From assembly GCA_038087875.1 (NCBI GenBank), contig CM075995.1:3474001-3538000 (forward strand): a stretch of DNA of 64,000 nucleotides. Reading direction: 5' to 3'. This DNA is from Malacoraja senta (taxonomy: Eukaryota). The notes below the pieces were generated by a model. It was not told the DNA's origin. It saw only the letters and a program-made list of their open reading frames with translations, and searched no databases. Position numbers and translations under genes: made by a program. Positions 1,753 through 57,300 of this stretch are shown one piece after another; positions within the stretch are counted from its first letter, which is position 1; the number at the start of each line of letters is the position of its first letter.

Positions 1753-1893
1753 GGGGGTGGAAGATTGCAGCCTTCACGTGGTCCGCCCTGTTTTGACGAA
1801 TGCAATCAACCTGGCGTGCACAATCAAATAAGATCAAATAGAACAAGTTGTCCTGCAACTTTAGGCTGTGCATGCCATACGCAAGAAGAAGAA
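1753..1893 (+). mobile_element. Short retroposon headed by an HDV-like ribozyme (family A)
   Basis: 11-bp TSD GGTGTGGAAGA (1742-1752, 1894-1904). 3' end CATACGC(AAG)n. Ribozyme fold at the 5' end. Confidence 0.85.
1754..1807 (+). ncRNA. Minimal HDV-like self-cleaving ribozyme
   Basis: P1 GGGGTGG/CCGCCCT (G1.U wobble), P2 GATTGCA/TGCAATC, P3 GCC/GGT, L3 TTCACGT, J4/2 ACGAA. P4 essentially absent. Confidence 0.85.
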
Positions 1894-2854
1894 GGTGTGG
1901 AAGAACACAAACAAAGGAAGAGGAATGGTGGAGTTAAAGGAAAAAAATCTAAACCAGCAAGAAAACAGGAACTGAGAGAAGTAAATGCTGGAAATCTGAA
2001 ATAAAAGACAATGCTGGAAATACTCAGCAGATGAGATAATATTTCTGGAGAGAGAAAAGCCTATTGTTATTCTAGTACTTGAAGAAACTCCATCCAGTTG
2101 ACACATGCCTTCAATAATTATCACCAAAAAAAATGTATCCAGCCATGACCTCATTGTTCTTTGTAGGTGATTGTTGTTTGCAAAGAATGGATCGGCTGGG
2201 CTTATATTCACTGGAATTTAGAAGGATGAGTTGGGATCTTATAGAAACATATACAATTCTTAAGGGATTGGACAGGCTATATGCAGGAAAAATATTCCCG
2301 ATGTTGGAGGAATCCAGAACCAGGGGTCACAGTTTAAGAGTAAGGCGTAGGCCATTTAGGACTGAGATGAGGATTTAAAAAATTTAACCCAGAGAGTTGT
2401 GAATCTGTAGAATTCTCTGCCACAGAAGGCAGTAGAGGCCAATTCTCTGGATGCTTTCAAGAGAGAGTTGGATAGAGCTCTTAAAGATAAAGGAGTCAGG
2501 GGATATGGGGAGAAGGCAGGAACATGGTACTGATTGTGGATGATCAGCCATGATCACAGTGAATGTTGGTTAGTTAGATTTAGCTCTTAGGGCTAACGGA
2601 ATCAAGGGATTTGGGGAAAATGCAGGAACGGGGAACTGATTTTGCATGATCAGCCATGATCATATTGAATGGCGGTGCTGGCTCGAAGGGCCGAACAGCC
2701 TACTCCTGCACCTATGTTCGATGTTCCTATGTTTCTATCATGGAATTGAGGTACTATTTTAGCTTTCGTTGAATCTCGCTCAGGAAGCGTGTCCAAATGC
2801 AGGTGCCAAATCCGCAAACGGAATGAAAACCTCAAGTGCGCAAACGGGGTGCAG

Positions 2855-2868
2855 GTTGCCATGGTAAC
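2855..2868. promoter_or_regulatory. RFX X-box motif in unique CpG-containing sequence
   Basis: GTTGCCATGGTAAC, a near-perfect palindromic RFX site, immediately followed by an ETS-like GCGGAAG. Confidence 0.5.
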
Positions 2869-4615
2869 GCGCGGAAGCAAGCCCTGAGTGGCAGGTAATC
2901 AAATCTGCCTGAGTGAATGGTCGGAAGTCAATGGGTCAAAAATGCGATCAGTCAGATTTTGAAAACCTTGATCGTCCCTTGATCATGGAAACAGGCGCAG
3001 CAACGGCAAGTGGCGAAAATTTCGTAACAGCGTTTCTTTGTCGAAACAGCGGTTAAAAGGAATTAAAATGTAAAAACTCGTTGAGGTTTGATGGAAGGTG
3101 AATAATGGTCGGTTTCTTATGCCTCGGGGATAGGTTTGAAGATGGATAGACCTGGCCTTCCCTCTCATGCCTCTGCAACTTAATGAGGGTACACTGCAAC
3201 ACATCCATTATTGGTTAAACTGGCTATTTAGTTGAGCTTTATTTATTTTTAGGAGATTAATCGTGTTCATTTTGTCTTCCTCCTCCACCCTCCCGCCACC
3301 TGGTCTTTCATTGCATGTCTCAAGTCCTGTCCCCGCTGTTGTATTGAAAAAGGAAGTGATTTTCATTTAGTGCCACAGCATTCCCCCCACCCCCCCCCCC
3401 CCCCCCACCACCACTGACTAAACAAAGGACAAAATGAAATTAAGTGACAAAGAGCTGCACAGGATTCAAGGCACAGCATCAAACTCAACTACATTTATGC
3501 TCCATATGAGATTCCTTAAGCCTCGACTTAACATTCAAATCCTTTCTCCTTTGTGAAATTATCTAGCACCTCCTTGAAATCCGATTTTCCTCACCTATTG
3601 CCTGTGATTCTGTCAGTTATGAATTAAAAAGTTCATCCATATTTAACTGACTAAGCCCCTTCATAACTTCCACACAGAGAGTGGTGGGTATATGGAGCGA
3701 GCTGCCGGCAGAGGTAGTTGAGGCAGGTGCCATAACGACATTTCAAAGGCATTCGGACAGGCACATGGATAGGAAAGGTTTAGTGTGACATGGGCCAAAC
3801 GTGGATAGGTGGGACTAGTGCAGACTGGGAATCTTGGTCGGCATGGGAATGTTTTTAGTTTTAGTTTCGTTTAGAGATACTGCGCAAATAACATGGCCCT
3901 TTGGCCCACCGAGTCCGCACCGACCAGCGATCCCCGCACATCTGCACTATCCTGCACTAGGGACAATTTTTACAATTTTTCCAAGCCAATTAACCTACAA
4001 ACCTGTACGTCTTTGGAGTGTGGGAGGAAACCGAAGATCTCGGAGAAAACACACGCAGTTCATGGGGAGAACGTACAAACTCCGTACAGACAAGCACCCA
4101 GAGTCAGGATCAAACCTGGGTCTCTGGTGCTGTATGTTGGGCCGAAGGACCTGTTTCTGTGCTGCATGATGCCATGACTATGAAACAAATCGCAACTCGA
4201 TCTTATTTCTAGAAATGTAAGACTCCCAGCCCGTGTAAAGTTTTCACTAAGTGCCTCTGAGTTCCAGGTATCAGTCCTGGAAAGATTCATTCATAATTTT
4301 TGCAGGGCCTAGTTATTTTTTTCTGTAAACTGGTTTAAATTTCTCTGATATTCCATTCAACTTATGGTTAATAAATGATGGTCAACTTACCGTTCATTGA
4401 TCATGGAAACGTGCAAACACTCAAGGTATTCACCAACATCATGATAGTTGTGTACTTCAGTGAACATTTAGAGTCATACAGCACCATAACAGGCCCTTCA
4501 GCCCAACTTGTTCATGCCGACCAAAATGCTCCATTTAATCTAGTCCAATTTGACTGCATTCACCCTATGTCCCTCCAATCCTTTTCTAGCCACGTACTTG
4601 TCCAAGTATCTTTGT

Positions 4616-11250: not shown

Positions 11251-14200
11251 TACCTTTCCCCTCTCAACTTAAACCAATGTCCTCTGTTGCTTGATTCCCC
11301 TACTGTGGGCATTCACCCTATCTATCCCCACTCATGATCTTACGCAGCTCTATAACATCACCCTTCAGCCTCCTGCGCTCCAAGGAATAAAGTCCTAGCC
11401 TGCCCCCAATCCCCGCTTCACACTAGTTCCATGTTATCCCATTTTCTCATCCACTCCCTACACATGAAGGGTGATTTACAGAGGCCAATTCACTTACAAA
11501 CCCACAAGTCTCTTGAATGTGGATGGAAAATAGCAAGGGGAACACATACAGCACCCGAGGTCAGGATCGAACCCTGGTCTCTGGCGCTGTGAGGCAGCAG
11601 CTCTATCAGCCACCCCACTGTGTCACCCTTGATGGTATGAAAACTTCTATCAAGATAAAATATCAAGAAACATCAGTGAACATAAACAGTCAAAAAGGTG
11701 CTGGAGTAACTCAGCAGGTCAGGCAGCATCTCTGTCTGTAGGTTTTTATAGTTTAGATTAGAGATATAGCGCGGAAACAGGTCCTCACCGATCAGCGATC
11801 CCCCCACATTAACACTATCCTACACACACTAGGGACAATTTACACTTGCTGTACACCAAGCCAATTAACCAACAAACTTGTACGTCTTTGGAGTGTGGGA
11901 GGAAACCGAAGATCTTGAGGGAAAACCCACACAGGTCACGGGGTGAACGTGCAAACTCCATATAGACAGCACCCGTAGTCGAGATCTAACCCGGGTCTCA
12001 GGCGCTGTAAGCGCAGTAAGGCAGGAACTCTATCGCTGCGCCACCGTGCCGCCCACAATGTAGATCATGAATAGGTGATGTTTCCAGTCGGGAATTTTCC
12101 TCAGACCCTTCCTTTCCCGATTCGAAGAGTTCTCCAGATATACTGCCTTGCTCTCTGTTACTCCAGCACTTTGCACCTTGTTTTGTAAATGTGCATCTGC
12201 AGTTCCTTTTTTGTCTCCCGTCAATCTGATGATTATATTTTTGATTATATCAAAATTGAATTTCTTGTTTTTGTTGTTTCTCTCATAACTCCTTTCATTC
12301 CAATAACTTGCTCCAATCTCCGCATTGATTGCCTCTTCATTGTGTGTGTAGGCTTTCCTTTGTATGCATTTTGTAGGTATTATTTGTTTACGAGGAATCC
12401 TTGCCTTAAGCCAAGGAAAGATATACAAAATAATGGCAGCGTAACCATGCACAGAGAGAGACTACATTCATAGGAGCAACAGGAAGGTCTTAAGGTCATA
12501 AGGTTAGAAGGTCATAAGGTCCAGAGTGATAGGAGTAGAATATAGACCAATCGCAGGCAGGTGGGACTAGTTTAACTGGGACATGTTGGCCAGTGTGGGC
12601 AAGTTGGGCCAAAGGGCCTGATTCCACACTGTATCACTCTATGACTCAATGACTCTATGAATTAGGCCATTCGGCCTATCAAGTCTACTTCACCATTCAA
12701 TCATGGCTGATCTATCTCTCCCTCCAAACCCCATTCTCCTGCCTTCTCCCCATAGCCTCTGACACCCATACTAATCAAGAATCTATCTATTTCTGCCTTA
12801 AAAATATACACTGACTTGGCCTCCACAGCCTTCTGCGGCAAAGAATTCCACAGAATGTCTAAAGAATTTTCTCCTCATCTCCTTCCTAAAAGACCGTCCT
12901 TTAATTCTGAAGCTATGCCCTCTAGTCCTAGACTCTCCCACTAGTGGAAACATCCTCTCCACATCCACTCTATCCAAGCCTTTCACAGGTCATGGTGGCA
13001 CAGCGGTAGAGCTGCTGCATTACAGCAAATACAGTGGCAGAGACCCGGGTTCGATCCCGACTACGGGTGCTGAATGTACGGAGTTTGTACGTTCTCCCCG
13101 TGACCTCCGAGATTTTCTCCGAGATCTTCAATTACCCCCCACACTCCAAAGACGTACAGGTTTGTAGGCTAATTGGCTTGGTAAATGTAAAAATTGTCCC
13201 TAGCGGGTGTTAATGTGCGGGGATCGCTGGTTGGCGCGGACCCAGTGACCCGTTTTGTTTCATGTCTAAGATAGACACAATATGCTAGAGTAACTCAGCA
13301 GGTCAGGCAGCATCTCTGGATGAAAGGCACAGGTGATAGAGTCATAGAGTGATACAGTGTGGAACCAGGCCCTTCAGCCCAACTTGCCCACACCGAACAA
13401 CATGTTCCAGCAGCACTAGTCACACCTGCCTGCGTTGGTCCATATCCCCAAACGTCCTATCCCCCAAACGTCATATCCACTGTATCTCTAAACTTTATGT
13501 TTCAATGTGGTCCCCCCTCATTCTTCTAAACTTCAGCGAGTACAGGCCCAGTGTCGACAAACGCTCATCATAGGTTAACTTACTCATTCCTGGGATCATT
13601 TTTATAAACCTCTTCTGGACCCTCTCCAGAGCCAGCACATCCTTCCTCAGATATGGTGCCCAAAATTGCTCACAATATTCCAAATGCGGCCTTACCAGCG
13701 CCTTATAGAGCCTCAGCATTAAACCAGGCTTTGATCACAGGAGCCACAATCAACCTTAGATCAGTCTAGCCAGCAAGAAGGATACGAGGGTCCCACTGTC
13801 TGAGTTTTCGAGTGAGTTGTATTACATTCTATTGAATATGATCCATTACATTCTATTGAATAAGTTTATAATAACAGAACTACTCACTATTTTATCTGTT
13901 GGGTTATTTGCCAAGTACCCTATTTCTTTAAGCAACCAATCTACTTCCTCTTCACTCATAAGACCAGCTGGAATTTTGGAGCCATGTTTGGCCTGAGGGA
14001 AGGATTCGAGTGTATGCATAAGTGTAAGCTTTGTCCAAATACATGTCTCAACATCATGTTTGCAATTTTAACAGTCACGGAAGGCAGAATTAGGAGTTAA
14101 AACTTCGAGGGGGAAGGTGCTTAGTTTGCCTCCAATTTCGAATCTATAGAACTGACCAGACATGAAACTAGGTGTAGAAAGGAACTGCCGATGTTTGTTT

Positions 14201-14857: not shown

Positions 14858-15057
14858 NNNNNNNNNNNNNNNNNNNNNNNNNNNNNNNNNNNNNNNNNNN
14901 NNNNNNNNNNNNNNNNNNNNNNNNNNNNNNNNNNNNNNNNNNNNNNNNNNNNNNNNNNNNNNNNNNNNNNNNNNNNNNNNNNNNNNNNNNNNNNNNNNNN
15001 NNNNNNNNNNNNNNNNNNNNNNNNNNNNNNNNNNNNNNNNNNNNNNNNNNNNNNNNN
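14858..15057. other. Assembly gap (200 N)
   Basis: Run of N in the sequence. Confidence 1.
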
Positions 15058-15668
15058 TGGGTAAACTCGCATCGTGGGACAGGGGCTTAAGGTTGTCAAA
15101 GGTTGTGGGGAGAAGGCGGGAGAATGGGGTTGAAAGGGAAGGATAGATCAGGCAAGATTGAATGGTGCAGTAAACTCGATGGGCCGATTAGCCTAATTCT
15201 GCTCCAATTATTTATGACGTATGAGACAGCTTCAAGGTGAAGGGGTGAGGTTTAAAGGAGACGTGTGGGACAACTTTTTTTACACAGATAGTGTTGGGTG
15301 CCAGAATCATGCTGCCAGGGGTGGTGGTGGAAGCAGATGCAACTGTGGTGTTTATGCTTTATATGTTGCTATCGTATGGCTATGCAGGGAATGGAGGGAT
15401 TGGGATCACAAGTTGGCAGATGAGATTAGTTTATCTTGGCATTATGCTAAGCACAGCTATTTGGGGCTGAAGGGCCAGTTCCCATGCTGTACTATTCTAT
15501 GTTCCATGTTGTGTGAACAAAGCCTTAATTTACCTTCATTATCCCATCCCTTTGCCCTGTCCAGTCTTTTCTTTACTTCCATCTCTTCCAACATCCTTGA
15601 TCAAATGTAAAAAAAGAATCGAAGAGTTAAATTATGTGCCACCATTTGTACAAAGCTGGTTTAAGTTT

Positions 15669-16095
15669 ACTTCTCCATGGATTGTCACCTTGTCGTGGTG
15701 GAGAAGCTCGTGTGGACCTGAGATCCTGAGAGTGACGCTGTCTGGAGCTATGCTCCTGGTAGGGCCACCCATGGCGGTAACGTCGAGGGGGAGGTCTGTG
15801 ACAAAGAGCAATCCGACCAAGACCTCAACGGTGGAACAGGCTGAGGACGATGGCTGACCTTAGTGGAGCGTCACAACGGCTGGGAAGGCGGATGAAGGCT
15901 GCAGCAGAAAAGGGTCCCAGGTCGTCTTGGACTCCATGCCACTGGATCCTGACCCATATCTGTCAAGGACCGTGGGGAAGCTGTCTGTGCACCAGTCTCC
16001 CTACATTAAACGAAGTCACGCACAGGCGTCCTCCATATAGGGAATAACACCCTGGAGACACCCATGGTCAGCCATGACTGAAGGAGGCCTAAGAA
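15669..16095 (+). mobile_element. RTE (Expander/Rex3-like) 5'UTR-derived non-autonomous retroposon (family D)
   Basis: 11-bp TSD GGTTTAAGTTT (15658-15668, 16096-16106). Sequence resembles RTE 5'UTRs (CACCTTGTCGTGGTGGAG...CCTGGTAGGG). Second copy at 46508. Confidence 0.8.
15670..15814 (+). ncRNA. HDV-like ribozyme with extended P4
   Basis: P1 CTTCTCC/GGAGAAG, P2 GGATTG(TC)/(GA)gCAATCC, P3 ACC/GGT, L3 TTGTCGT, long P4 (GGACCT...AGGTCT), J4/2 ACAAA. Position 1 is C, not G. Confidence 0.65.
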
Positions 16096-16682
16096 GGTTT
16101 AAGTTTGTTATCAAACATCAAGATGTCTTTGGAGACACCAGGAACTGCAGTTGCTGGAATTCTGTGTGCAACACAAAGGGCTGGAGGAACTCCATGGGTC
16201 AGGCAGCATCTCTGGAAGGAATGGACAATCAACATTACGAAATGTCACCTGTCCATCCCTTCAGAGATGCCACCTGATCCCCTGAGTTCCTCCAGCACTT
16301 TGTCATTCAATGAAGATGTCTTTCTCTGCTTGTGTAGGAAGGAACTGCAGGAGAATAGGAGATGTTTCGGGTCGAGACGTCCCGAGTCGAGAATTCCTTT
16401 TCTCCAGAGATGCTGCCTGACCCGCTGAGTTACTGCAGTATTTTGTGTCTGCCTTTCTCTGCCTGGCAGTTCTCCTGTGTAGACATTATTCACGGCAGTT
16501 TAAGGGACAGCTTTATGAAGTACGGCCTTGGCAGTGTTGACTATCGGTGGAAAACACTGATGCACTTTGATCTTAGGAATAAAGTTTTATCCCACCTGAA
16601 ACCTCTAAGATGCAGGATTACATCAGTGTCACACAGTTCATGCAATTGCTCAGAACTAAAACAACCTCCAATTTCATAAGCT

Positions 16683-22349: not shown

Positions 22350-25205
22350 AGAAACATAGGAACATAGAAAATAGGTGCAGGAGTAGGCCATTCGGCCCTT
22401 CGAGCCTGCACCGCCATTCAATATTATCATGGCTGATCATCCAACTCAGTATCCTGTACCTGCTTTCTCTCCATACCCCATGATCCCTTTAGCCACAAGG
22501 GCCACATCTAACTCCCTCTTAAATAAAGCCAATGAACTGGCCTCAACTACATTCTGTGGCAGAGAATTCCAGAGATTAACCACTTTCTGTGTAAAAAATG
22601 TTTTTCTCATCTCAGTCCAAAAAGATTTCCCCTTTATCCTTAAACTGTGACCCCTTGTTCTGGACTTCCCCAACACCGGGAACAATCTTCCTGCATCGAG
22701 CCTGTCCAACCCCTTAAGAATTTTGTAAGTTTCTATAAGATCCCCCTTCAATTTTCTAAATTCTAGCGAGTACATATAACCATATAAACCATATAACAAT
22801 TACAGCACGGAAACAGGCCATCTCGACCCTTCTAGTCCATGCCGAACACGTATTCTCCCCTAGTCCCATATACCTGTGCTCAGACCATAACCCTCCATTC
22901 CTTTCCCGTCCATATAACTATCCAATTTATTTTTAAATGATAAAAACGAACCTGCCTCCACCACCTTCACTGGAAGCTCATTCCACACAGCCACCACTCT
23001 CTGAGTAAAGAAGTTCCCCCTCATGTTACTCCTAAACTTCTGTCCCTTAATTCTCAAGTCATGTCCCCTTGTTTGAATCTTCCCTACTCTTAGTGGGAAA
23101 AGCTTATCCACGTCAACTCTGTCTATCCCTCGCATCATTTTAAAGACCTCTATCAAGTCCCCCCTTAACCTTCTGCGCTCCAAAGAATAAAGCCCTAACT
23201 TGTTCAACCTTTCTCTGTAACTTAGTTGCTGAAACCCAGGCAACATTCTAGTAAATCTCCTCTGTACTCTCTCTATTTTGTTGACATCCTTCCTATAATT
23301 AGGCGACCAAAATTGTACACCATACTCCAGAATTGGCCTCACCAATGCCTTGTACAATTTTAACATTACATCCCAACTTCTATACTCAATGCTCTGATTT
23401 ATAAAAGCCAGCACACTAAAAGCTTTCTTTACCACCCTATCTACATGAGATTCCACTTTCAGGGAACTGTGCACAGTTATTCCAAGATCCCTCTGTTCAC
23501 CTGCATTCTTCAATTCCCTACCATTTACCATGTACGTCCTATTTTGATTTGTCCTGCCAAGATGTAGCACCTCACACTTATCAGCATTAAACTCCATCTG
23601 CCATCTTTCAGCCCACTCTTCCAAACGGCATAAATCTCTCTGTAGACTTTGAAAATCTACTTCATTATCCACAGCCCCACCTATCTTAGTATCATCTGCA
23701 TTCTTACTAATCCAATTTACCACACCATCATCCAGTTCATTGATGTACATGACAAACAACAGTGGACCCAACACAGATCCCTGTGGCACCCCACTAGTCA
23801 TTGGCCTCCAACCTGACAAACAACCATCCACCATTACTCTCTGGCATCTCCCATTCAGCCACTGTTGAATCCATCTTGCTACTCCACCATTAATACCCAA
23901 CCATTGAACCTTCTTAACCAACCTTCCGTGAGGAACTTTGTCAAAGGCCTTACTGAAGTCCATATATACAACATCCATGGCTTTACCCTCATCAATTTCC
24001 CGAGTAACCTCTTCAAAAAATTCAAGAAGATTAGTCAAACATGACCTTCCAGGCACAAATCCATGTTGACTGTTCCTAATCAGCCCCTGTTTATCCTTTC
24101 CATTAATTTGCCCACCACTGACGTCAAACTAACAGGTCTATAATTGCTAGGTTTACTCTTAGACCCCTTTCTAAACAATGGAACAACATGCGCAGTACGC
24201 CAATCCTCCGGCACTATTGCCGTTTCCAATGACATTTGAAATATTTCTGTCATAGCCCCTGCTATTTATACACTAACTTCCCTCAATGTCCTAGGGAATA
24301 TCCTGTCTGGACCTGGAGACTTATCCACTTTTATATTTCTCAAAAGTGTCAGTACTTCCTCTTCTTTGAATCTCATAGTTTCCATAGCTACTCTACTTGT
24401 TTCCCTTACCTCACATAATTCAATATCCTTCTCCTTGGTGAATACCGAAGAAAAGAAATTGTTCAATATCTCCCCCATCTCTTTTGGCTCTGCAGAGTAC
24501 AAGCCGAGTCTATCCAGTCTTTCTTCATATGAAAGTCCTGACATCCCAGGAATCAGTCTGGTGAACCTTCTCTGTACTCACTCTATGGCAAGAATGTCCT
24601 TCCTCAGATTAGGAGACCAAAACTGTACGCAATACTCCAGGTGTGGTCTCACCAAGGCCCTGTACAACTGCAGTAGAACCTCCCTGCTCCTATACTCAAA
24701 TCCTTTTGCTATGAATGCTAACATACCATTCGCTTTCTTCACTGCCTGCTGCACCTGCATGCCTACTTTCAATGACTGGTGTACCATGACACCCAGGTCT
24801 CGTTGCATCTCCCCTTTTCCTAATTGGTCACCATTCAGGTAATAGTCTACTTTCCTGTTTTTGCCACCAAAGTGGATAACCTCACATGTATTCACATTAT
24901 ACTGCATCTGCCATGCATTTGCCCACTCCCCCAGCCTATTCAAGTCATCTTGCAGCCTCCTAGCACCCTCCTCACAGCTAACACTGCCCCCCAGCTTCGT
25001 GTCATCTGCAAACTTGGAGATGTTGCATTCAATTCCCTCGTCCAAATCATTAATATATATTGTAAATAGCTGGGGTCCCAGCACTGAGCCTTGCGGTACC
25101 CCACTAGTCACTGCCTGCCATTCTGAAAAGGACCCGTTAACGCCTACTCTTTGCTTCCTGTCTGCCAGCCAGTTCTCTATCCACATCAATACTGAACCCC
25201 CAATA
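22350..25205 (-). mobile_element. Host CR1 LINE (interrupted by the 22775-24494 copy)
   Basis: RT motifs GVPQGSVLGP and FADD in ORF 24578-25216. Continues through 22446-22774 into a 3'UTR ending in TATGTTTC-type repeats. Confidence 0.9.
22775..24494 (-). mobile_element. Young 5'-truncated CR1 LINE nested in another CR1
   Basis: 398-aa open RT region (22860-24056; YMDFSKAFDKV, GVPQGSVLGP, NADD in place of Y/FADD). TSD GAGTACA (22768-22774, 24495-24501). TATATGGTT-type repeat tail. Confidence 0.93.
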
Positions 25206-28554: not shown

Positions 28555-28749
28555 CTTCTTCTTCTTTTCGTGTCCTTCTTGTTACAAATGTTGAACTCGC
28601 TGTCGTCGTCCATCCTGAAAAGGACACAAGCTTCCGGCGACAATCAGTGGAAGCCATCACTTGTTGTAGTAGATGATGGTGGTAGCAGAATTAGCTGAGG
28701 ATACTTCCAGTTTCCAGCCCCGCGACATGGACGCTTCTGCTATGGGGCC
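28555..28749 (-). mobile_element. Short retroposon headed by an HDV-like ribozyme (family B)
   Basis: On the minus strand it begins at the ribozyme G1 and ends GACACGAAAAGAAGAAGAAG. No clean TSD of its own. Confidence 0.75.
28683..28749 (-). ncRNA. HDV/CPEB3-like self-cleaving ribozyme
   Basis: GGCCCC A TAGCAGAA GCG TCCATGT CGC GGGGCT GG AAA CTG..CAG CTAA TTCTGCTA: 6-bp P1 with G.U, 8-bp P2, P3, CC/GG P1.1, short P4, catalytic C in GCTAA. Confidence 0.9.
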
Positions 28750-33600: not shown

Positions 33601-34406
33601 CTGCTGCTGTAAGGCAACGACTCCACCGCTGCCCACCATGCCACTGTGCCGCCCCTAAAAATGGCTTTTCTTCCAAAGTGTCCATTAAGAACAGGAGCTT
33701 GGAGCAATTTTGGGAGGTCTGTCGCCTCACTCCCTGCTGCACGAGGCTATAAAATATGATTTTACTTCGGAGTCACGTGAGTGATTCCGTGAAGAACCCC
33801 ATCAGTCAGCATGCGCGTCATTACATCTGCCGCATGGTGCAGCGACCAGCTCGGAGGGCAGAGCTCCTCCAGCGGTAAGTTTGAAAGCCTCAGGTAAGTG
33901 TTAAACTTAGTGTGAGGTTGGGTTCTTCTGCGCTTGTTACAGGAGGGCAAGTCCAAGCAGGGAGAAGTCGGTGCAAGCAAGGCGAGTCGTTTTGAAAATT
34001 ACCAAGCACTGCGGGAGTGCGGGTAGCGGGCGGCCGCCTGGCTCATCTATAGAGTCGCCAGTTGTTAAACCAGCGACTGCAGGCTTGGGCTCTGAGGATG
34101 CCAGGGCTACGCCGGTGGGGCGTACAGCCACCAGCAAGTCTGCACAGCCGATAGACTAGGACGAGTCCGGTCGGGAGGGTTCTCCTCCAGGAAGGGATAC
34201 CGTGTATGGGCGGTTATCCACGGTGGAGCACCTGTTGGGGAGGATGCTCCATCAGGAGCGCAGGTCTCGCCAAGAGCCAGCGCCAGCAGCGCCTATTACA
34301 GGGCTGCCTAATATCTCCCTCGAGGAGGAGGTGAGCGTACCTGGTCAGGATGAATCTGATGTCGACTCTGAGGGGTTAGTATTGGAGGCTGCCCCAAGGG
34401 ACGAAG

Positions 34407-35100
34407 GTGCCGGATGTCCCATTCCTGGCAGCGAGGTTTGCCGTCCCAACATATACGGGAGAGCCGCTGGGTGAGGATTTGGCCGCCACAATAAATTATC
34501 TAGCCTCACACCAGTTCCAGGAGCTCACTATGGATGCAACAGCTCGGAAATATCAAACACCGGCTAATTGTATTCTACTGAAGGTGATGAAGCTGCAGAG
34601 GGTACTGAAGCTACTGGCTTCCGGCATTACGCCATTTGGGAGGTCGGTGGATGGGGGGCACCTGTCTGAGATTCAGCATGATGCCCTGGCTCTCATGTGC
34701 AATGTGCACTTTGAGATAAACTGCCTTAGAAAGAGCGCCATCCGCCCTACGATTAATCCAAAATTCGCTGCCCTCTGTAAGCCCAGCAACGTCCAGCCAC
34801 CAAATCTTTTATTTGGAGAAGACCTCGTGCAGCGGGTGAAGGAATTGGACGACGAGGCAAAGACCGTGGGGCTCATTAAAGTGCCAATGACCGGCAGAAC
34901 ACCGCGGAGGCAGCACCCCTACAAGAGGTTTGCCGAAACCGGGGCCGGGCAAGGACCAAGTCGGCCATTCAATGTGCGCAACTGGTGCACTCCTGCAGGA
35001 GCACGAACAACTATGCCGTTTCCCACCGGAGCCAGGGGACAAGGAACTCCACCGGTAACCATGGAGGTAGGTGGGTCTGGTGCTTGTAGAAACGTATTCA
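34407..35100 (+). pseudogene. DIRS gag-like ORF1 remnant
   Basis: Motif LRKSAIRPTINPKFAALC...LLFGEDLVQRVKEL is typical of DIRS gag-like ORFs. It runs into the pol start PVGGRL. Confidence 0.7.
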
Positions 35101-35109
35101 GTGAGAGTT

Positions 35110-36560
35110 ACCTACCAGTTGGGGGGAGGTTACACTGGTTTCTGAAAGAATGGTACTGGATAACATCCGAATTGTTTATACTGCAAGCGATACAGGGGTT
35201 AAAAATTGAATTAATTTCTAATTTGTGTCCACCTACACAACATTCACCGAGGAGGGCACTTGTTTTCTCACAAAAAGAGAATTTGGAGTTTCAGGCTGAA
35301 ATTGAGAAATTATATCTCAAAGGTGTAATTGAAAAGGCAGTTTGGCAACCTCACCAATTCGTATATAATTTTTTCCTAGACCAAAGAAAGATGGGGGTAG
35401 TCGGATCATTTTGAACCTGACGGACCTTAATCCGTTTGTGCAGTATAGGCATTTCAAGATGGAAACTTTTGCCACTGCCAAGCAATTGGTTTCCAGAGGG
35501 TGATATATGGCATGTATAGATCTTAAGGATGCATATTACTCAGTGCCTGTTTATAAAGACCATCGGAGGTATTTGAAATTTAGTTGGATGAGGCAGTTGT
35601 GGCAATTTAAGGCACTGCCTAATGGGTTAACCTCAGCCCTAGATTATTTACAAAACTGCTGAAACCAGCATTGGGGCTACTCTGGGTTCAGGGTCATATT
35701 GTAATGGCTTATTTAGATGATATTTTAAAAATTGGGAAAACTCGGGAAGCAGCTGGGTTATCTGTTTCAGCTCTAAAACTCATGTTTGAGAGTCTGGGGT
35801 TTTCTAAGTCATCCAACTAAATCAAAGTTGATACCGGTTAAAGTTATTGATTATCTGGGCTTCATAGTTAATTCAACTCACATGTCTGTAACTCTACCCA
35901 AGGGCAAGAGATTAGATTTAATTGAAGGCTGCATCAAGCTCATAGCAGAGCAATCACCTTCAATTAGGCATGTGGCCAGCTTGATTGGCAAATTGGTAGC
36001 AGCCTTTCCAGCTGCACAGTATGGACCTTTGCATTACCAACACTTACAAAGGTCAAAGGTGCAGGCACTAAGGAATCATGCAGGCCATTACAGCAGACCT
36101 ATGCAATTACCAAATGAAGCAATTGCTGAAATTCAATGGTGGATTAGGAACATTTCAAATTGTTCCAGCAAAATTTTGATTGAAGCACCTTCAGTTGTTT
36201 TACAGACTGACGTTAGTGCCCTAGGTTGGGGGGCTACTGATACCATCTCTAGCTGTGGGGGCAGATGGAATGTGCATGAGGCATTTATTCTTCAATCACA
36301 TGGAATTAATTATTTAGAGTTACTGGGAGCATTTTATGGGCTTAAGGCTTATTGTACCACCAAGCATCACTTACATGTTCAGCTTCAGATTGACAACACC
36401 ACGGCAGTGGCGTATGTGACTTATATGGGTGGAATCAAGTCGCAATCTTGTGACAGATTGGCTAACCTTATTTTGCATTGGTGCATTAAAAGAAACATTT
36501 GGGTTTTCAGCTGTTTACTTGCCGGGCAGGTTCAACATGGTGGCAGACACCAGATCATGC
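35110..36560 (+). pseudogene. DIRS reverse transcriptase + RNase H (frameshifted)
   Basis: PVGGRLHWFLKEW start, then HFKMET, IDLKDAYYSVP, LPNGL, and MAYLDD at ~35704-35721. RNase H motifs LQTDVSALGWG, INYLELLG, DNTTAVAY. In-frame TGA at 35501 and several frameshifts. Confidence 0.9.
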
Positions 36561-37000
36561 AAATTCAATGACAACACAGAATGGATGTTGAATCATGAAG
36601 TATTTGATAATATTGTTGTTCGATATGGGATGCCAGATATCGATTTGTTTGCATCCAGACTCAATCACCAGGTGCCGAAGTATGTTTCATGGGAACCAGA
36701 CCAGGGGGCAGTAGCGGTAGACGCTTTCGCGCTACATTGGGGAGGACTGTTTATATATGCATTTCCCCCATTCTGCCTCATCAGTCGGTGCTTGACTAAA
36801 ATCAAGCAGGACTCCGCTTCAGGAGTTTTGGTGGTGCCCGACTGGCCTACACAGCCATGGTTCCCTCTCATTTCGGACATTATAACTCAGCCAATTATGG
36901 TGGTTCCAAAATGTCATAACCTATTGGTAAACCCTGTGCCTGGAGATCAACACCCGTTGTATGCTCGTATTAATTTGTTAATTTGCAGGTTTTCAGGAGG
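36560..37000 (+). pseudogene. DIRS DNA N6-adenine methyltransferase-like domain
   Basis: IDLFASRLN...DAFALHWGGLFIYAFPPF...VVPDWPTQPWFP: the Dam-like MT domain of DIRS1-group pol C-termini. Confidence 0.85.
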
Positions 37001-37950
37001 CCATACCTGGGTCTGGGACTATCCAATCGCACCGTGGATATCATCACATCATCCTGCAGGGATAGTACAAAAAAGCAGTACCTCTCTCATGTCAGGAAGT
37101 GGGAGGCGTTTTGCTTAAAAGGGAATATTATTTACCACACAGTTTCCATCCCAGATGTGTTAGAGTTTCTCTCCAAATTGTATTTTGATGAGGTTTAAGT
37201 TATAGTGCCATCAATACTGCCAGGAGTACTCTGTCATTGTATTTATGTTTGGGGTCAGAACTACAGTCTGTAGGAGCTCATCCGTTAATACCCGGATTTA
37301 TGAAGGGTGTTTTTAATTCCAATCCCCCCAGGCCTAGATATACAGAAGTCTGGGATGTCAGTGTGGTACTCACGCTGCTTCGACAGTGGGGTCCAGCCAC
37401 ATCCTTGTCTTTGGTAAAGATTACCTTGAAATTGGTTATGCTCATGGCGTTAGTGTCAGCGCAGAGGGTTCAGACTCTGCAGAAATTGAGACTGGACAGG
37501 ATGGTGTCATCTGGGAATGACGTTCTGTTCTACATATATGATCTCATAACACAGCGCAGACCAGGGGTGTCAGGAGTCAAGCTTCTACTGTCACCTTATC
37601 CCACGGATTTAAGACTGTGTGTGGTGGCGCACTTGTGGTCTTATATTGAGGTCACTAAGGGCCTCAGAGGATCGGAAGTACAATTGTTTGTTAGCCACAT
37701 GGGAAAGTGTCCGTCCAGACCATCTCAAGATGGCTGAAACAAGTATTGGTTTTTGCAGGAGTTAATACTGACAATTTTAAATCTCACTCCACCAGGGCGG
37801 CATCAACGTCAGCAGTGAGGGCAATGGACGTCCCTCTAGACCATATCCTCGCGGCCGCAGGATGGTCAAATGAACTGACTTTTCACCGGTTTTATAATAA
37901 ACCACTTATCGAAACCGGGGTGTTTGCCCATTCTATTTTAAGTTCTGTTT
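36983..37950 (+). pseudogene. DIRS tyrosine recombinase (split over three ORF segments)
   Basis: SAM-like N-terminal part (STKKQYLSHVRKW), then LVSAQR, HSTRAAST, AAGWSNELTFHRFY, consistent with the catalytic R...HxxR...W...Y residues. Stop at ~37196 and a frameshift near 37705. Confidence 0.9.
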
Positions 37951-40859
37951 TCCTAGCTTCCCCTGGGAGAGAGGGGTCACTATTGTACTTTCTTTATTTG
38001 TTTGTGAAGAGCAACATGTTAATCTGTACCATGCTTCATTGTATTGCGCATTATTCACTCCTCCTGAGTCAACTGATGCAGTGTGAGAAGCCCGGATTCG
38101 TATCTATGGCATGAAATCACAGAGCTTTGAATTTTTCACGGAATCACTCATGTGACTCCGAAGTAAAATAGTAAGATTAAACGAGAACTTACCAGTTTGA
38201 AGTTTGATCTTTATTTTATGAGGAGTTACGATGAGCGATTACGTGCCCATCGCTCCCGGCCCTCAAGATTATAAAGGTCAACTGGAAGGGCTGTTTTATA
38301 TTCTTACTATGTTACTTCAGTTACGTTTTATCTGTGATTTCACACCGCTGCTTTGAAGATTGACGCGCATGCCGACTGACGGGGTTCTTCATGTAATCGC
38401 TCATCGAAACTCCTCATAAAATAAAGATCAAACTTCAAACTGGGTATGTTCTCGTTTAATCTTACTATTACTTCTTCGTAGTCTGAAGAAGGGTCTCGAC
38501 CCGAAACGTCACCCATTCCTTCTCTCCAGAGATGCTGCCTGTCCCACTGAGTTAATCCAGTATTTTGTGTCAATCTTATGATGACTTCTTCTTTGATTCT
38601 CAATGCCAGACCATTTGTAAGAATTCATTTTGAATTCACTGTTCTCCAGTTCGTTAACATTTTTAAGTTGAACTAGACAGACAAAGCCAATGTCCCTGGA
38701 AGAGTCCCAGTTCACCTTCAAACACACAGTAAAAGCTACAACTTTCAATTTAGGGGTATGAAGCAAAATGTGACTGTTATAGAGTTACACAGCACAAAAA
38801 AAAGCCCTTGGGCCAAACAAGTCCATGCCAGACATCAACCACACATCTTCACTAATCCTACACTAATTCCCGTTCTTCATTCCTCTCACATTCCTGTCAC
38901 CCCCTCCCCTCCCTCCACCCTTCTGCAGATTTTGTTATTCATCTACACGCGAGCAGCAACTTACCGTCACCAATTAACCCACTAAACCATATGTTTTGGA
39001 GATATGTGAAGAAACCAAAGAAGTAAGGGGAAATCCAAATGGTCATGTTCACGTCCACAGGTGATAGCAGAATTAGGCCATTCGGCCCATCAAGTCTACT
39101 CCACCATTCAATCATGGCTGATCTATCTCTCCTTCCTAACCCCATTTTCCGGCCTTCTTCCCCGAACCCATGGCACCTGTATTAATCAAGAATCTATCCA
39201 TCTCTGTCTTCAAAATATCCATTGACGGTCTCCACAGCCTTTTCTAACAGCCTCTGGTCCTAGACTATCGCACTAGTGGAAACATCCACTCCACATCCAC
39301 TCTATCCAGGCCTCACATAACACAAAAAATGACGGTATCGCTGATGGTAAGGAGGGTGGTCTTAGGCTACTGGGTAATATTGATGAAGTGGTAAAATCAT
39401 CAGAAAATGGCAAACGGTATTTAATCTGGGTAATGTGATGCACTTTGGAGTTCTAATAAAACACAATGGCCCTAAGGAGAAGGCAGGAATGGGGTACTGA
39501 TTGTGGATGATCAGCCATGATCACATTGAATGGCGGTGCTGGCTCAAAGGGCCGAATGGTCTACTCCTGCACCTATTGTCTATTGTCTATATGGACCTTG
39601 ATGTACAAGATCAAAGGTCCCTAAAGGTGGACATTTCGGGCCAAGACCGTTCATCAGACTGAATACTGCACACTGTATTCGGGTCTGAAGAAGGGTCTCA
39701 TCCCGAAACGTCACCCATTCCTTCTCTCCAGAGATGCTGCCTGTCCCGCTGAGATACTCCAGCATCTTGTGCCAGTCTTCAGTTTAAACCAGCATCTGCA
39801 AGTCCTTCCTACAAGTTTCAATAGGATGTTGGCAGGGATGGAGTGCATCAATTTTGAGGAGAAATGATTAGGCTGGGTTTATATTTCTTGGAGCAGAGAA
39901 AGCAGTGGGCGATTGAAGTGTCCAAAATGATTCAACATATAGATAGGACAGATAGGAAGAAACGTCTCCTCATAGCTGATGTCTCTATAATTAGAGGGCA
40001 AAAGTTTAAGATAAGGTGTAACAAGCTCAGAGTGGATCTGAGGAAGATTCTTTTTACTCAATTGGGAATTGGAATCTTAAGCCTATTGCCTGAGTGAATG
40101 GTGGAGGCAGAGATTTGCAATATTAAAGGGGAATTGATATAAGCCCTTGGATGGGTGGCACAGTGGTGCAGCGATAGAGTTACTGCCTTGCAGCGCCAGG
40201 GACTGGCCACAGGCGTGTGACTATGATCCTGACTACCGGTGCTTGTCTGTACGGAGTTTTACCTTCTCCCCGTGACCACGTGGGTTTTCTCCCAGTGCTC
40301 CGGTTTCCTCCCACACTCCAAAGACGTACAGGTTTAATTGGCTTTGGTGAAATTGTAAACTGTCCCTTGTACGTAGGATAGTGCTCATGTGTACGGGCTG
40401 ATCCCCTTCCGACGCGGACTCCATAGGCCGAAGGGCGTGTTTCCCTGCTGTTTCTCTAACGTCTAAAGTAAAGTCTAAATCATCAAATTGTAGAAGACCA
40501 GGGACTAAGTCCTCGTTGACACCTTCCCCGCAGCCAACAATGATGCATTCTACATTTTCCTTGACCTTCGTCCCCTTTGATCACTGATTGTCACACCTTA
40601 CTCTTCCATATCTCTATGTCTCCCTCTCCCCTGAATCTCAGTCTGAAGAAGGGTCTCGACCCGAAACATCACCCATTCCTTCTCTCCAGAGATGCTGCCC
40701 GTCCCACTGAGTTGCACCAGCATTTTGTGCTTATATTTGGTGCAAACCAGATGTCTGCAGTTCCTTCCTGACATTAGAATCGATGGATACCTGCTGGTCA
40801 ACAGTCACACGATGGACTGAAGGATCTGTTTCTGTGCCGTACTACCCAAGAGTCAGGAG

Positions 40860-46385: not shown

Positions 46386-46507
46386 AGAAAATCAAAGCAG
46401 GGGGGTTGCTTCTCAAAGCTCCTCTCCCTTCGATATGGTCCACTTTTCTGCCAGGTGAACTTGGCAGCTTACAACCCAGCGGTATGAATATTGGTTTCCC
46501 AAGCACC

Positions 46508-46941
46508 CTTCTCCGTGGACTGTCACCTTGTCATGGTGGAGAAGCTTGTGTGGACCTGAGATCCTGAGAGCGATGCCATCTGGAACTATGCTCCTGGTAG
46601 GGCCACCCATGGCGGTAAGGTCAAGGGGGAGGTCTCTGACAAAGAGCAATCCAACCAAGACCTCAACGGTGGAACAGGCGGAGGATGATGGCTGACCTTA
46701 GTGGAGCGTCACAATGGCTGGGAAGGCGGATGAAGTCTGCAGCAGAAAAGGGTATCCGGTCATCGTGGACTCCATGCCACTGGATCCTGACCCAGATCTG
46801 TCAAGGACCGTGAGGTGGCTGCTGTGCACCAGTCTCCCCAAGTTAAACAAAGTCACGCACAGGCGTCCTCCATATAGGGAATAGCACCCTGGAGACACCT
46901 GTGGTCAGCCACGACCGAAGGGAGCCTAAGGAGAAGAAGAA
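46508..46941 (+). mobile_element. Second copy of family D RTE-derived retroposon
   Basis: Colinear with 15670-16095 and has a (GAA)n tail. Ribozyme fold at 46508-46652 carries substitutions in L3 and P2. Confidence 0.8.
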
Positions 46942-53345: not shown

Positions 53346-54141
53346 CTTAGCTGCCAATGTGGCATCAACTGGATTGTGAATCAGCCTTTAACCACCGATT
53401 CTCTCTCCTCCTAACCGCACATGTTCTCTCAGTACCTCACTTTAGTCAGAGAGTGGTGAATCTGTGGAATTCTTTGCCACAGAAGGCAGTGGAGGCCAAG
53501 TCAGTGGATATTTTTAAGGCGGAGATTGACAGATTCTTGATTAGTAAGGGTGTCAGGGGTTACGGGGAGAAGGGAGGAGAATGGGGTTGAGAGGGAGAGA
53601 TAGATGAGCCATGATTGAAGAGAGTTTTAAAAAGCCGAGTAGAGTTGATGGGCCGAATGGCCTAATTCTGTTCCGATAACTTATGAACTTCTGAATTACA
53701 TTTTTCTTCATGCATAGCATTGCAAGAGAAACAATTTGTGTAAGGTCAGTCACCCTCATTGGTCAATGAACTGCACCAGGCTTTTAACAGTGCATTGCAA
53801 CTCTCTGTTAGTTGAATGTGGATGACAAGTTTAGACTGGGACATGTTGGTCGGTGTGGGCAAGTTGGGCCGAAGGGCCTGTTTCCATACTGTAAGACTAT
53901 GACTATGAACACTTGCTGGAGCAATCCGGCCTGCATCTCTGGTGAGAGTTTTGCATCGAACAAAGAATCCTACAGTCACCCGGTACAGAAACAAGCCCTT
54001 CAGCCAACTTGCCCATGCCGACCAGGATGCCCCATCTACACCAGTTCCACCTGCCTGCACTTGGCCCATATCTCTCTAAACCTTTCCTATCCATGTACCT
54101 GCCCAAATGTCTTTTAAATGTTGTTATAGTACCTGCCTCAA

Positions 54142-54317
54142 TGGGGTCAAGGAAAGAGCGTTCACGTCGCGGCCCTGTTTCCACCAATCTTTCCACCACC
54201 ACGCACAAGAAGCACAAGAAGCACAAGACAGACACCACTGTATGCAGATGCTAAGAAGTGTGGTCAGCTCTGGCTGAACAACTTCTAATCTTGTGTGTGG
54301 ACTCGATAAGAATTATG
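54142..54317 (+). mobile_element. Short retroposon headed by an HDV-like ribozyme (family C), inserted in a CR1 3' fragment
   Basis: Perfect 11-bp TSD ACCTGCCTCAA (54131-54141, 54318-54328) interrupting the CR1 3' sequence. Confidence 0.85.
54143..54194 (+). ncRNA. Minimal HDV-like self-cleaving ribozyme
   Basis: P1 GGGGTC/GGCCCT, P2 GGAAAGA/TCTTTCC, P3 GCG/CGC, L3 TTCACGT, J4/2 ACCAA. No real P4. Confidence 0.85.
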
Positions 54318-57300
54318 ACCTGCCTCAACTGCCTCCTCTGGAAACTTATTCCATACACCCACCACCCTCTGTGTGGAAAAAGATGAGCCTCCATTTTTTT
54401 TTAGATTACAGTCTCTGTGGATGTTTTAACAATAGCTGATTTGTAGGTTTCCCTTGTCATAAGAATTGCACGGGCTATTGCAGAGGGAGCATAAAATAAG
54501 CTGCTTAGATTCCAGCATCAGTATTCTCTTGTGTCTCCATACTATAGAAGGAACCTTGTATGTATAACCTTGCAGCTAACCATGAGACAGACTTGACTTT
54601 CCATGTGAGTTTCAAACTTAGAGTGAAACGGATAACATTCAGAATGCTGAGCATAAACATGCAAAGTTGTGCCGCTCGGATGAAGATAATAGTCAGAAAT
54701 GTTTGCCTTGGACTGGAAACTACACGTAATGTGAATGAAAAGTAAATGGTTTTCTGTATGGGAATTCAGTGCTTGGAACAGAATTTATGAACCAGCTCAA
54801 TATTATTGGAGGATGTCGTATGTTTATATACAAGATATTCCTAGATTAGCGACATGCTGTGTCAAACCAGAATCCAGCATTTGGCCATGTTTTGCTTATA
54901 TTAGATTGAGGCACCAATCTCGTTCTGAACTTGCTCATGGCAAAATAATTTTCAATTAACCCAGCAAGTTCTCCCTTCTTTCATGGTAACTGTGGGTACA
55001 ATAGTTTAGTTCAGTTTAGTTTAGTTTAGTTTAGAGATACAGTGCGGAAACAAGCCCTTCGGTTCACGAGTCCACGCCGACCAGCAATCCCCGCACACTA
55101 ACACTATCCTACACACATTAGGGACAATTTACCTTTATACCAAGCCAATTCACTTACAAACCTGTATGTCAGGTACATGGATAGGATAGGTTTAGAGGGA
55201 TATGGGCCAAATGCAGGCAGGTGGGACTAGTGTAGATGGGACATGTTGTTCGGTGTGGAAATTGGGTCGATGGGCCTGTTTCCACACTGTATGACTCTAT
55301 GACGCTATGACTATGACTCTACCCTGTTGAGTTCTCTGTGATTCGTGCATGTTTCAACAAATTGAATTGAATACTTTATTGTCACATGTGACAAGTCACA
55401 GTGAAATTCTTTGCTTGCAAATGCAAGGTATGCAAATAGTGGTCCATAAAGGGTGCTTACAAAGTTGATGAGGTCGCCTTATTCTTCTAAATACTTTAGA
55501 ATCATAGTCTGACCATCTCAATCAGACCCACTGTGCCCGGAACGAGTCTAATGAATCTTCACTTCATTCCCCCTGTGGAATACACATCTTTATTCCAGCT
55601 AAGGCGACCAAAACTACAAACATGAATCTGAAGGGTGGCATAATGGTGCATCAGACAGAACTAATCCCCAGTGAATAAGAGTTAATCCTGAACCAGATAC
55701 TGTTTATGTGGAGTGTACTCCTTGTCTCTGATACTGCGTGGGTTTTCTCCCACATCCAAAGACATGCTGACTGGAGGTTAATCAGCCATTGTAAATTGCC
55801 CCTAGTGTAGGTCGATGGGAGGCGAATCAGGGTGTTAATGGGTATGTGAGGGAGAACCAGGAAATAAGTGGGGATAAGATCATAAGTTACAGGTGCAGAA
55901 TTAGGCCAATCAGCCCATCAAGCCTACTCCGCCATTCCATCATGGCTGATCTGTCATTCCCTCTGAACCACATTCTCCTGCCTTCTCCCCAGATTGATGG
56001 GAATGCTCTGAGGGCTGGCATTGACTTGATGGGCCGAAAGTGTTCTTCCATGCTGTGAGAAATATGAAACTCCGAGTATGAGCTTAACAATGACTTTACA
56101 ATTACAGTGAGGTTTTGGTCAATTAAACCATGCCAGCTAATCTTTAATCAGGGATCCCACTCCGCCATCTTAATCAACATTCTATGCCTTAGCATTAATA
56201 AGAATTGATCTCCTCATTTTTAAAACATTACAATGGGAAGAAAGCAGAATTCTGTGGACAGTAATAAATATTACATTCTTCCGTCTTTACTTTTGATTCA
56301 TATCTTTTTAGAACCTCAAACCATGGCAATACAATCACCTTATGTCACCCCAGAAAGGTGGTATCCTTATTTCCAAATTAATATTTTGTCACCACTGTAT
56401 TGGATCTTTCCACCACTAAATATACTGTTGATAGTGGAAAGAATATACGCTGAAAAATGGGATCACATTGGCCTGGATAGAGTGAATGTAGAGAGGATGT
56501 TTCCACTAGTGGGAGAGTTTAAGACAAGTGATCATAGTCTCAGAATTAAAGGACGTTCTCTTGGAAAGGAGATGAGGAGGAGTTTCTTTAGTCAGAGGGT
56601 GGTGAACCTGTGGAATTCATTGCCATGGAAGACTGTGGAGGCTACATCAGTGAATATTTTTAAGGCAGAGATAGATAGATTCTTGATTAGTACGGGTCTC
56701 ATGAGTTATGGGGAGATGGCAGGAAATGGGGTTAGGAGGGAATGATAGATCAACCATGATTGAATGGTGGAGTAGACTTGATGGGCCAAATGGCCTAAAT
56801 CTGCTATTATATCTAATGAACTTATGAACAAGCAAACTGGAATTGTTTTGACCGTGTTGTGATCGAAGATTGATGTGACACAGTGAGAGATGCATTAGCA
56901 ATTATTTCCAGATACATTTGCTCCACTCACAAAATTGGACCAGCCTTTTCGTCTTGGGATCTATGCTACTGTGTTGAACGTTTTGCCAGCATCAGCATGC
57001 AATGCATGTTCAAACCTCTTCCTGATGTTAATGGAGTCCTCTGGTCTGGAAAATGATCGATGTCTGGCAGTTGTAATAAAACAAGGAACACAAACTGCTG
57101 AGTTCTGCATTGATGTGCCATTCACAGGATCACTTAACTCGCAATGAGACATTTCACAAGCAAAGAAATGAATGGCTGGAAGAGTAGCAAGTCAAGCAGC
57201 AAGTCAAGTAGCATCCGCGGATGCGAACAGATGGTCAAATTTATGAGTTATCCCATTACCTCCAAAGATGCCGCTTGACACTCTGAATATTTCCAGCAGT

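Follow-up and report, generated by a model that had tools for sequence, protein, structure and literature searches.

Small, abundant retroposons with predicted HDV-like ribozymes at their 5' ends in Malacoraja senta, and a probable Vingi source for the CPEB3 ribozyme

A 64,000-nucleotide stretch of the Malacoraja senta genome (GenBank assembly GCA_038087875.1, contig CM075995.1, forward-strand positions 3,474,001 to 3,538,000; hereafter the window) carries five short retroposons that represent four high-copy families, designated A, B, C, and D (the last present twice, as D1 and D2), with elements of 140-430 bases. Each is headed by a fold resembling the self-cleaving ribozyme of hepatitis delta virus (HDV). 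We put at roughly three in four the probability that Vingi long interspersed nuclear elements (LINEs) gave rise to A, B, and C, and an RTE LINE to D, each as a two-ended, non-autonomous derivative that cycles by way of an RNA with a ribozyme at its 5' end. One of the two types of Vingi head recognized here, to judge by its sequence, is likely homologous to the mammalian ribozyme of CPEB3, which would then probably be a domesticated 5' end of a Vingi or mini-Vingi element. Published work is cited by PMC number, and statements drawn from it refer to the portions of each source that were available.

Predicted ribozymes at element 5' ends

A strict double-pseudoknot descriptor of the HDV fold, run at two settings over both strands of the window, found three matches, the heads of A, C, and B, and no matches in 30 dinucleotide shuffles at either setting. 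All three heads show the nested arrangement P1-P2-P3-P1.1, with G-T as the first pair and an L3 that fits the consensus. The head of A has a 7-bp P1, a 7-bp P2, P3, the L3 sequence TTCACGT, a 5-nt loop in place of P4, and CGAA as J4/2; that of B has a 6-bp P1, an 8-bp P2, GCG/CGC as P3, and CTAA as J4/2; that of C has a 6-bp P1, a 7-bp P2, the same GCG/CGC P3, no P4, and CCAA as J4/2. In A and C, as in the CPEB3 ribozyme, P1.1 consists of one pair. The catalytic C of J4/2 is retained in 70 of 70 copies sampled from the genome (20/20 for A, 25/25 for B, 25/25 for C), and the J4/2 A (A78) in 69 of the 70. We regard the heads of A, B, and C as probable HDV-like ribozymes, for which the modeled fold predicts cleavage 5' of position 1.

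When these three heads are compared with those of three LINEs described below (L131, L155, and L180), 102 of 103 helix cells pair despite differing P1 and P2 sequences, a tally made partly circular by the use of a pairing descriptor to choose the six. A preliminary description of this DNA had made its proposal depend on covariation across copies; helices do covary between families, with that qualification; within any one family, comparison of copies turned up no compensatory changes. Changes outside CpG, ribozyme versus body, number 6/920 versus 23/1380 in A, 19/1475 versus 52/2475 in B, and 8/1100 versus 26/2625 in C, counts that are uninformative about selection, as inserted copies drift and the sample is skewed toward the best matches.

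The D heads were missed both by the strict descriptor and by an Rfam scan of the window. Read by hand, the head has P1, P2, and P3, with C-G as its first pair, a reversed P1.1 (G in L3, C after P1), one bulge required in P2, a P4 of about 93 nt, and CAAA as J4/2, the last in common with the printed RTE-3_Crp. Folding of its P4 gave no advantage over shuffled sequence (z 0.30, -0.46, and 0.57), and thermodynamic folding of the whole head by a method without pseudoknots gave no support (z 0.51). The claim of the preliminary description that every element starts within 1 nt of position 1 of an HDV-like fold therefore stands for A, B, and C, and is less clean for D, where the fold is non-canonical and the target-site duplication (TSD) rarely abuts it.

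Insertion junctions and copy number

Perfect 11-bp TSDs flank the window copies of A, C, and D1, three elements as had been claimed, with a single extra base between the duplication and ribozyme position 1; inspection of the flanks of B and D2 found no clear TSD. Searches of the 1.94-Gb genome with each window copy as query returned 2093 candidates for A, 2012 for B, 1394 for C, and 2760 for D, and the 40 scored per family were 93-99% identical to the respective window copy. The best-scoring 20 A, 25 B, 25 C, and 15 D loci were fetched and examined for TSDs, with 4 loci dropped because their flanks were duplicated. In 17/20 A, 14/23 B, 15/23 C, and 2/15 D copies a TSD of 9 bp or longer stops exactly before position 1, and some TSD lies within 4 nt of position 1 in 19/20, 19/23, 18/23, and 6/15 (for D, within 3 nt), against 2/380, 2/506, 2/506, and 1/210 in mismatched-flank controls; a sample of the best-scoring 15-25 among 40 per family leans to full-length copies. 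In families A to C the duplications are 11-12 bp and the tails are (GAA)n. Variable TSDs and a simple-repeat tail, in elements without coding capacity, are hallmarks of target-primed reverse transcription (TPRT).

For family A, the first 19 nt occur 6,826 times in the genome, and a 19-mer from the 3' end 7,371 times, the latter an undercount because the pattern begins on a polymorphic base. The ratio 6,826/7,371 therefore sets a ceiling for the fraction of full-length copies: the extreme 5' end is retained in no fewer than 6,800 copies, and in about 93% of them all at most. The observation of ribozyme-headed elements is thus confirmed by three descriptor folds absent from shuffles, by TSDs, and by genome-wide copies, many of which begin at ribozyme position 1 in A to C; the high abundance predicted from five copies in 64 kb is likewise borne out, with about 7,000 copies of A and 1394-2760 search candidates per family.

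The base preceding position 1 is T in 10/20 A, 14/23 B, and 13/23 C copies, and G is rare there in B (0/23) and C (1/23). This bias could reflect a nicking preference, untemplated addition, or a cleavage preference. Pieces of family A were found in 4 of 4 public sequencing runs from four other organisms, with most listed pieces beginning at the equivalent of window position 1753-1754. Contigs of two of these organisms pass from inside the 3' end of A into the same right flank (window 1866-2218), a hint that the insertion is older than the divergence of these organisms. An empty-site comparison in public runs of other species gave no readable joint.

LINE relatives of the four families

A reverse transcriptase (RT) motif of Ingi/Vingi elements, used as a search pattern, matched 349 Vingi-like LINEs genome-wide, and a control pattern matched none. 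Eighty matches were fetched. The first 40 form 12 clusters, and most visible 3' ends close in (A/T)CG followed by (GAA)n, as in A to C; one cluster ends in TAAA repeats. A 900-aa LINE frame contains the Pfam domains RVT_1 and Exo_endo_phos_2 and has no RNase H match, and the Vingi layout is described as a compact single open reading frame (ORF) with an apurinic/apyrimidinic endonuclease (APE) and RT, without RNase H (PMC13708176). We assign these LINEs provisionally to Vingi on this architecture and on 5' ends like those of printed Vingi entries. A search of the PDB returned only RTs of L1, R2, and group II type.

The LINE copies are mostly 5'-truncated, and an HDV-like head was found on 3 of the 80 fetched matches. 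L131 measures 3.1 kb, and its 11-bp TSD directly abuts the first base of its ribozyme, G1; six further heads of its family continue into the ORF. The TSD of L180 stops 5 nt upstream of G1. By their P3 the heads fall into a GCG/CGC group (L131, B, and C) and an ACC/GGT group (L155, L180, and A), and the three LINE heads divide as their RT sequences do (one case and two, respectively).

Family C is connected to a LINE at its 3' end. Its last 75 nt correspond to the final codons, stop, and 3' untranslated region (UTR) of a Vingi-like family, with 92-95% identity over 64-78 nt to LINE fragment ends in 8 of 12 pattern matches, and its head is 84% identical to that of L131 over 37 nt. Family B appears to retain an ATG followed by some 22 codons that resemble a Vingi ORF start ahead of the endonuclease domain. 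Its last 19 nt are identical to the end of L131; 24 of 25 head bases are shared, by eye, with the printed 5' end of the gharial element Vingi-2_Gav, and its tail resembles that of SINE2-1_AMi (both PMC5786205). The D consensus shares 112 of 132 positions (about 85%), by eye, with the printed RTE-3_Crp 5' UTR (PMC5786205); a pattern search for its parent returned three matches, all of them variants of D, and did not trace its 3' part to a LINE 3' end. In family A, the 3' end shows only likeness to Vingi ends, and the 5' part is connected to LINEs by architecture only. The two-ended structure is accordingly seen for family C in its 3' part and for families B and D in their 5' parts; elsewhere it is presumed. 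A subfamily of B (L167-L174) has a different 3' end, closer to that of the LINE L150, and a subfamily of D (L254-L256) has a shorter 3' part.

The bodies of A to D have nothing in common in sequence comparison beyond the ribozyme core and the tail. Calling them unrelated families was correct in that sense, and not as to descent, since A, B, and C appear to come from related Vingi LINE families. The further proposal that they are high-copy, non-coding parasites of ingi/Vingi- or RTE-type LINEs, copied by TPRT, is supported by heads, tails, and TSDs, and the LINEs with shared ends that it called for exist in the form of Vingi-like LINEs with the same type of head and a Vingi ORF end matching that of C. 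As to class, the elements do depend on LINEs, but rather than forming a new class of short interspersed nuclear elements (SINEs) they are best understood as LINE derivatives that arose by internal deletion.

Resemblance to the CPEB3 ribozyme

The Rfam model of the CPEB3 ribozyme, RF00622, has a gathering cut-off of 35 bits. Heads of family B score 38.3 (the window copy) and 42.5 bits, L131 scores 59.7, and ten further heads score 39.9-64.2, all ten above the cut-off. Family C gives partial matches of 26.9 (window copy) and 27.9 bits, under the cut-off. L155, L180, a copy of A, and a copy of D have no match to the model, so the likeness exceeds what a generic fold would give. Genome-wide, 59 candidates were scored, and 39 of the 51 listed matches lie above the cut-off, the best at 64.2 bits.

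Twenty of these matches were fetched. They comprise the six L131-type heads that continue into the ORF, two L131-type sequences ending after about 100-130 nt, two copies of C, and ten members of three low-copy head families (with 4, 7, and 6 matches). Members of these three older families (L258/L262/L266; L265/L267/L269/L274; L268/L271/L276) have a CPEB3-like head followed by a further 30-60 nt, and neither a GAA tail nor a TSD was found on them. They resemble Vingi 5' ends standing alone, a state that the CPEB3 ribozyme shares. Just upstream of the head in both L261 and L271 (bases 1-78 of each), tblastn finds an inverted piece of Vingi RT-coding sequence, which suggests that solo heads may be left behind by inversion or template switching.

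Published Vingi sequences extend the likeness. With the P4 loop set aside, the printed end of Vingi-2_Gav agrees by eye with 52 of 54 positions of the RF00622 consensus (PMC5786205), and the supplement to that paper shows the same head in crocodile, sea-urchin, and lancelet Vingi entries and in SINE2-1_AMi. One of the low-copy families, read by eye from decayed copies, has the 7-bp P4 stem of CPEB3, as does SINE2-1_AMi. The available text and supplement of PMC5786205 never mention CPEB3. The possibility that drz-Spur-3 is the head of Vingi-2_SPur was considered and rejected, by eye, from printed primers (PMC5984629).

The heads found here are multicopy and element-borne, unlike the CPEB3 ribozyme, which is described as single-copy, intronic, conserved for about 159 million years, and confined to mammals; its origin is treated as open, a reconstruction having stopped for want of outgroups (PMC8233481). 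Conserved ribozymes have been suggested, in general terms and with no source named, to be probable co-options from mobile elements (PMC7761336), and the human genome holds a Vingi trace, X12_LINE (PMC5753468). The link to CPEB3 involves about 55 nt of strongly constrained RNA, a point that weighs against it. Convergence on a constrained fold, or descent of both from a common third source, would account for likeness in so short a motif, and there is precedent in the R2 and HDV cores, which share 21 of 27 nt with no common descent established (PMC8256844). This explanation nevertheless seems unlikely to us. Identity reaches into P1, P2, and the P4 stem, helices that vary freely among other HDV-like ribozymes; the Vingi-2_Gav agreement and the shared 7-bp stem point the same way, as do the Vingi traces in the human genome; and the heads of the other Vingi group, whose HDV folds are just as good, miss the model.

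No statement of a Vingi ribozyme or of a Vingi origin for CPEB3 was found in the literature searched, which excluded Repbase, Dfam, patents, bioRxiv supplements, and the original reports (Ruminski 2011, Webb 2009, Kojima 2011) that, according to PMC8256844, cover lancelet, lamprey, and sea-urchin ribozymes. The whole of the proposal, namely that CPEB3 is a domesticated, B-like Vingi or mini-Vingi 5' end, that Vingi LINEs from lancelet to crocodilians bear the ribozyme, that here it drives swarms of promoter-less retroposons of 140-195 nt, among the smallest ribozyme-headed mobile elements of vertebrates, and that the link is not yet in print, has in our judgment an even chance of holding in every part.

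Feature coordinates and surrounding sequence

Table 1. Parts of the five retroposons, in window coordinates
Feature	Position	Strand	Basis or remark
Family A left TSD, 11 bp	1742..1752	+	Repeat at 1894-1904; extra G at 1753 before ribozyme
Family A head, 54-nt putative minimal HDV-like ribozyme	1754..1807	+	Descriptor, helix reading
Family A body and (GAA)n tail	1808..1893	+	Last ~20 nt resemble Vingi 3' ends
D1 left TSD, 11 bp	15658..15668	+	Repeat at 16096-16106; extra A at 15669
D1 head, RTE-type non-canonical HDV-like fold	15670..15814	+	Read by hand
Rest of D1: sequence like an RTE 5' UTR, then a short 3' end and AAGAA tail	15815..16095	+	
Family B head, 67-nt putative CPEB3-like HDV ribozyme	28683..28749	-	Descriptor, Rfam RF00622
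Family B ATG and ~22 codons, apparently Vingi ORF start-like	28590..28657 (approximate)	-	Comparison with L131, L138
Family B 3' end and (GAA)n tail	28555..28589	-	LINE end comparison
D2 head, RTE-type HDV-like fold	46508..46652	+	Read by hand
D2 remainder and (GAA)n tail	46653..46941	+	No clear TSD
Family C left TSD, 11 bp	54131..54141	+	Repeat at 54318-54328; extra T at 54142
Family C head, 52-nt putative minimal HDV-like ribozyme	54143..54194	+	Descriptor, helix reading
Family C 3' part: last Vingi-like ORF codons, stop, 3' UTR, tail	54242..54317	+	LINE end identity

The suggestion that the elements are released here from intronic or antisense RNA of ELMO1 was not borne out. On this contig, ELMO-domain exons occupy 5.60-5.72 Mb, some 2.1 Mb away from the window (3.47-3.54 Mb); there is no such exon within the window, and 16 ELMO peptide motifs also have no match in it. 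The repeats that flank the elements seem to resemble those of a cartilaginous fish. A candidate 35-codon exon with good splice sites, at 13888-13992 on the minus strand, has no gene match. Broken frames at 34380-38111 (+), for which Pfam gave only a weak Dam-like match, presumably belong to a DIRS/Ngaro-like tyrosine-recombinase retrotransposon. LINE fragments at 22863-25240 (-) have an RVT_1 RT domain, and we take them to be CR1-like. A run of 200 N occupies 14858-15057.

Discussion

The life cycle that we favor would begin with an internal deletion joining the ribozyme-initial 5' UTR of a LINE to the last 30-75 bases of the same LINE. A copy would be transcribed by read-through from a host promoter or from a promoter within the head. 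The ribozyme, whose fold and position at the insertion boundary are observed, would then cut immediately 5' of its own first base and remain on the RNA, giving a unit-length molecule with a 5'-OH and an end protected by the pseudoknot. The short 3' end and the (GAA)n tail, a tail shared with the LINEs, would recruit in trans the single ORF protein, with APE endonuclease and RT, of an active Vingi or RTE. TPRT would finally insert a mostly full-length copy, and such copies with 11-12-bp TSDs are indeed found. Because the elements are short they would usually be copied to the end and keep the ribozyme, whereas most copies of Vingi LINEs are 5'-truncated.

Several observations weigh against this reading, besides the descriptor-chosen heads, the lack of compensatory change within families, the lean of the TSD sample, and the undercounted 3' pattern already described. 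No full-length parent with an identical head was recovered for any family, and parent pattern searches returned only short variants (8/8 for B, 1/1 for A, 3/3 for D). For C, the family that supplied the 3' part is represented by about 101 candidate fragments that are 84-95% alike, versus 95-98% among C copies; this structural parent is thus older than C, so that another family, to which tail likeness points, must have driven the expansion. A walk up this parent gave 33 matches 1 kb upstream, of which 8 were fetched; six had ORF matches and none reached a head, and the longest fetched copy stops near residue 156. P1 is short, at 6 bp, in B and C, and P4 is missing from A and C. The fold of D is non-canonical, and its TSD seldom abuts position 1.

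The head might act mainly as an internal promoter, with the transcription start setting the 5' ends and cleavage secondary or absent. The sister Ingi clade offers a model, Pr77, in which one stretch of 77 nt serves as promoter and as ribozyme (PMC3383444); thousands of scattered copies require some source of transcription, and an extra non-templated base often lies between the TSD and G1. The TSD-defined end, on the other hand, is the first base of P1, exactly where HDV-like ribozymes cut, and a bare promoter would require neither the unvarying catalytic C nor helices that covary between families, so that we consider this quite improbable; a dual role of promoter and ribozyme would fit the deletion-derivative explanation as well. 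The preliminary description was right that the elements lack a head of the kind found in small RNAs made by RNA polymerase III: they have no tRNA head, the window has no tRNA genes, and the Rfam scan found no match to a small-RNA-derived head. Box A is absent from A and C; B has loose boxes about 160 nt apart, and D loose one-mismatch matches, for which there was no shuffle control. In view of the dual 77 nt of the sister clade, its stronger claim that no promoter is needed is unproven.

Equally hard to credit is an origin of A to C as chimeric "ribozyme SINEs," in which an independent ribozyme RNA was template-switched onto an unrelated LINE tail. No parent was found with both exact head and exact tail, the tail of B fits the L131 and L150 families, whose heads differ from that of B or are unseen, and hybrid SIDEs and tail exchange are documented (PMC3414825, PMC5786205). 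Yet the heads are of Vingi type, as on LINEs of this genome and in Repbase entries, and B appears to have a remnant of the ORF start, so that even a chimera would join a Vingi head to a Vingi tail. The least probable of the alternatives, and to us a far-fetched one, is that the fold is kept as a 5' stabilizer, protein-binding site, or translation signal, with no appreciable cleavage in vivo. A cleaved R2-type fold does shield RNA 5' ends (PMC13708176), and the short or missing helices of A to C and the reversed core of D speak for such a role; but protection demands a fold at the extreme 5' end, which cleavage itself supplies, and both the catalytic C and A78 are conserved.

Internally deleted LINE derivatives are a type of element already known. 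NARTc, RIME, and SIDER are ribozyme-headed LINE derivatives, with in vitro cleavage reported for NARTco and several SIDERs (PMC4035085). Like the present elements they are short and non-coding and combine a ribozyme 5' end with a short 3' end of an APE-type LINE, there of a sister clade; the cut just 5' of +1 was demonstrated in vitro (PMC3383444, PMC4035085), whereas here it is predicted. They are trypanosomatid elements of about 260 nt or longer, with poly(A) and the Pr77 sequence, whereas A to C are vertebrate elements of 140-195 nt with (GAA)n tails, in several families of thousands of copies, two with heads lacking P4. R2 SIDEs and R2/R1 hybrids of Drosophila likewise join a 5' HDV-like ribozyme to a LINE 3' end through internal deletion, with release from a co-transcript (PMC3414825); they are specific to ribosomal DNA and rare, while those described here are dispersed, abundant, and associated with APE-type machinery of Vingi and RTE. 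RTE, Ingi, Vingi, and R2 are named as clades that produce two-ended derivatives (Kojima 2018, PMC5786205), and in Vingi-1_EE derivatives, RTE-N, Bov-A, and SINE2-1_AMi only the LINE 5' and 3' ends are retained (PMC5786205). The Vingi and RTE 5' ends printed there match the heads of B and D, A to D having been compared with printed entries. Families A to D are very small, very abundant vertebrate members of this known SIDE/NARTc/RIME/RTE-N type. The CPEB3 ribozyme, for its part, shares topology and a near-identical sequence with the GCG/CGC heads of Vingi (to 64.2 bits).

Thousands of predicted self-cutting folds across a genome should have consequences for their host, and we predict depletion from the sense strand of introns, together with occasional exaptation. 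A Vingi 5' UTR may remove anything upstream of it, the cap included. Vingi and RTE proteins, combined with their own UTRs, are in use as RNA gene writers (PMC13708176), and the mini-elements suggest a minimal writer template consisting of about 50 nt of ribozyme and a tail of 30-75 nt. The CPEB3 ribozyme has been linked to memory in mice, and for it the 5' ends of Vingi would provide natural outgroups and a concrete, testable origin.

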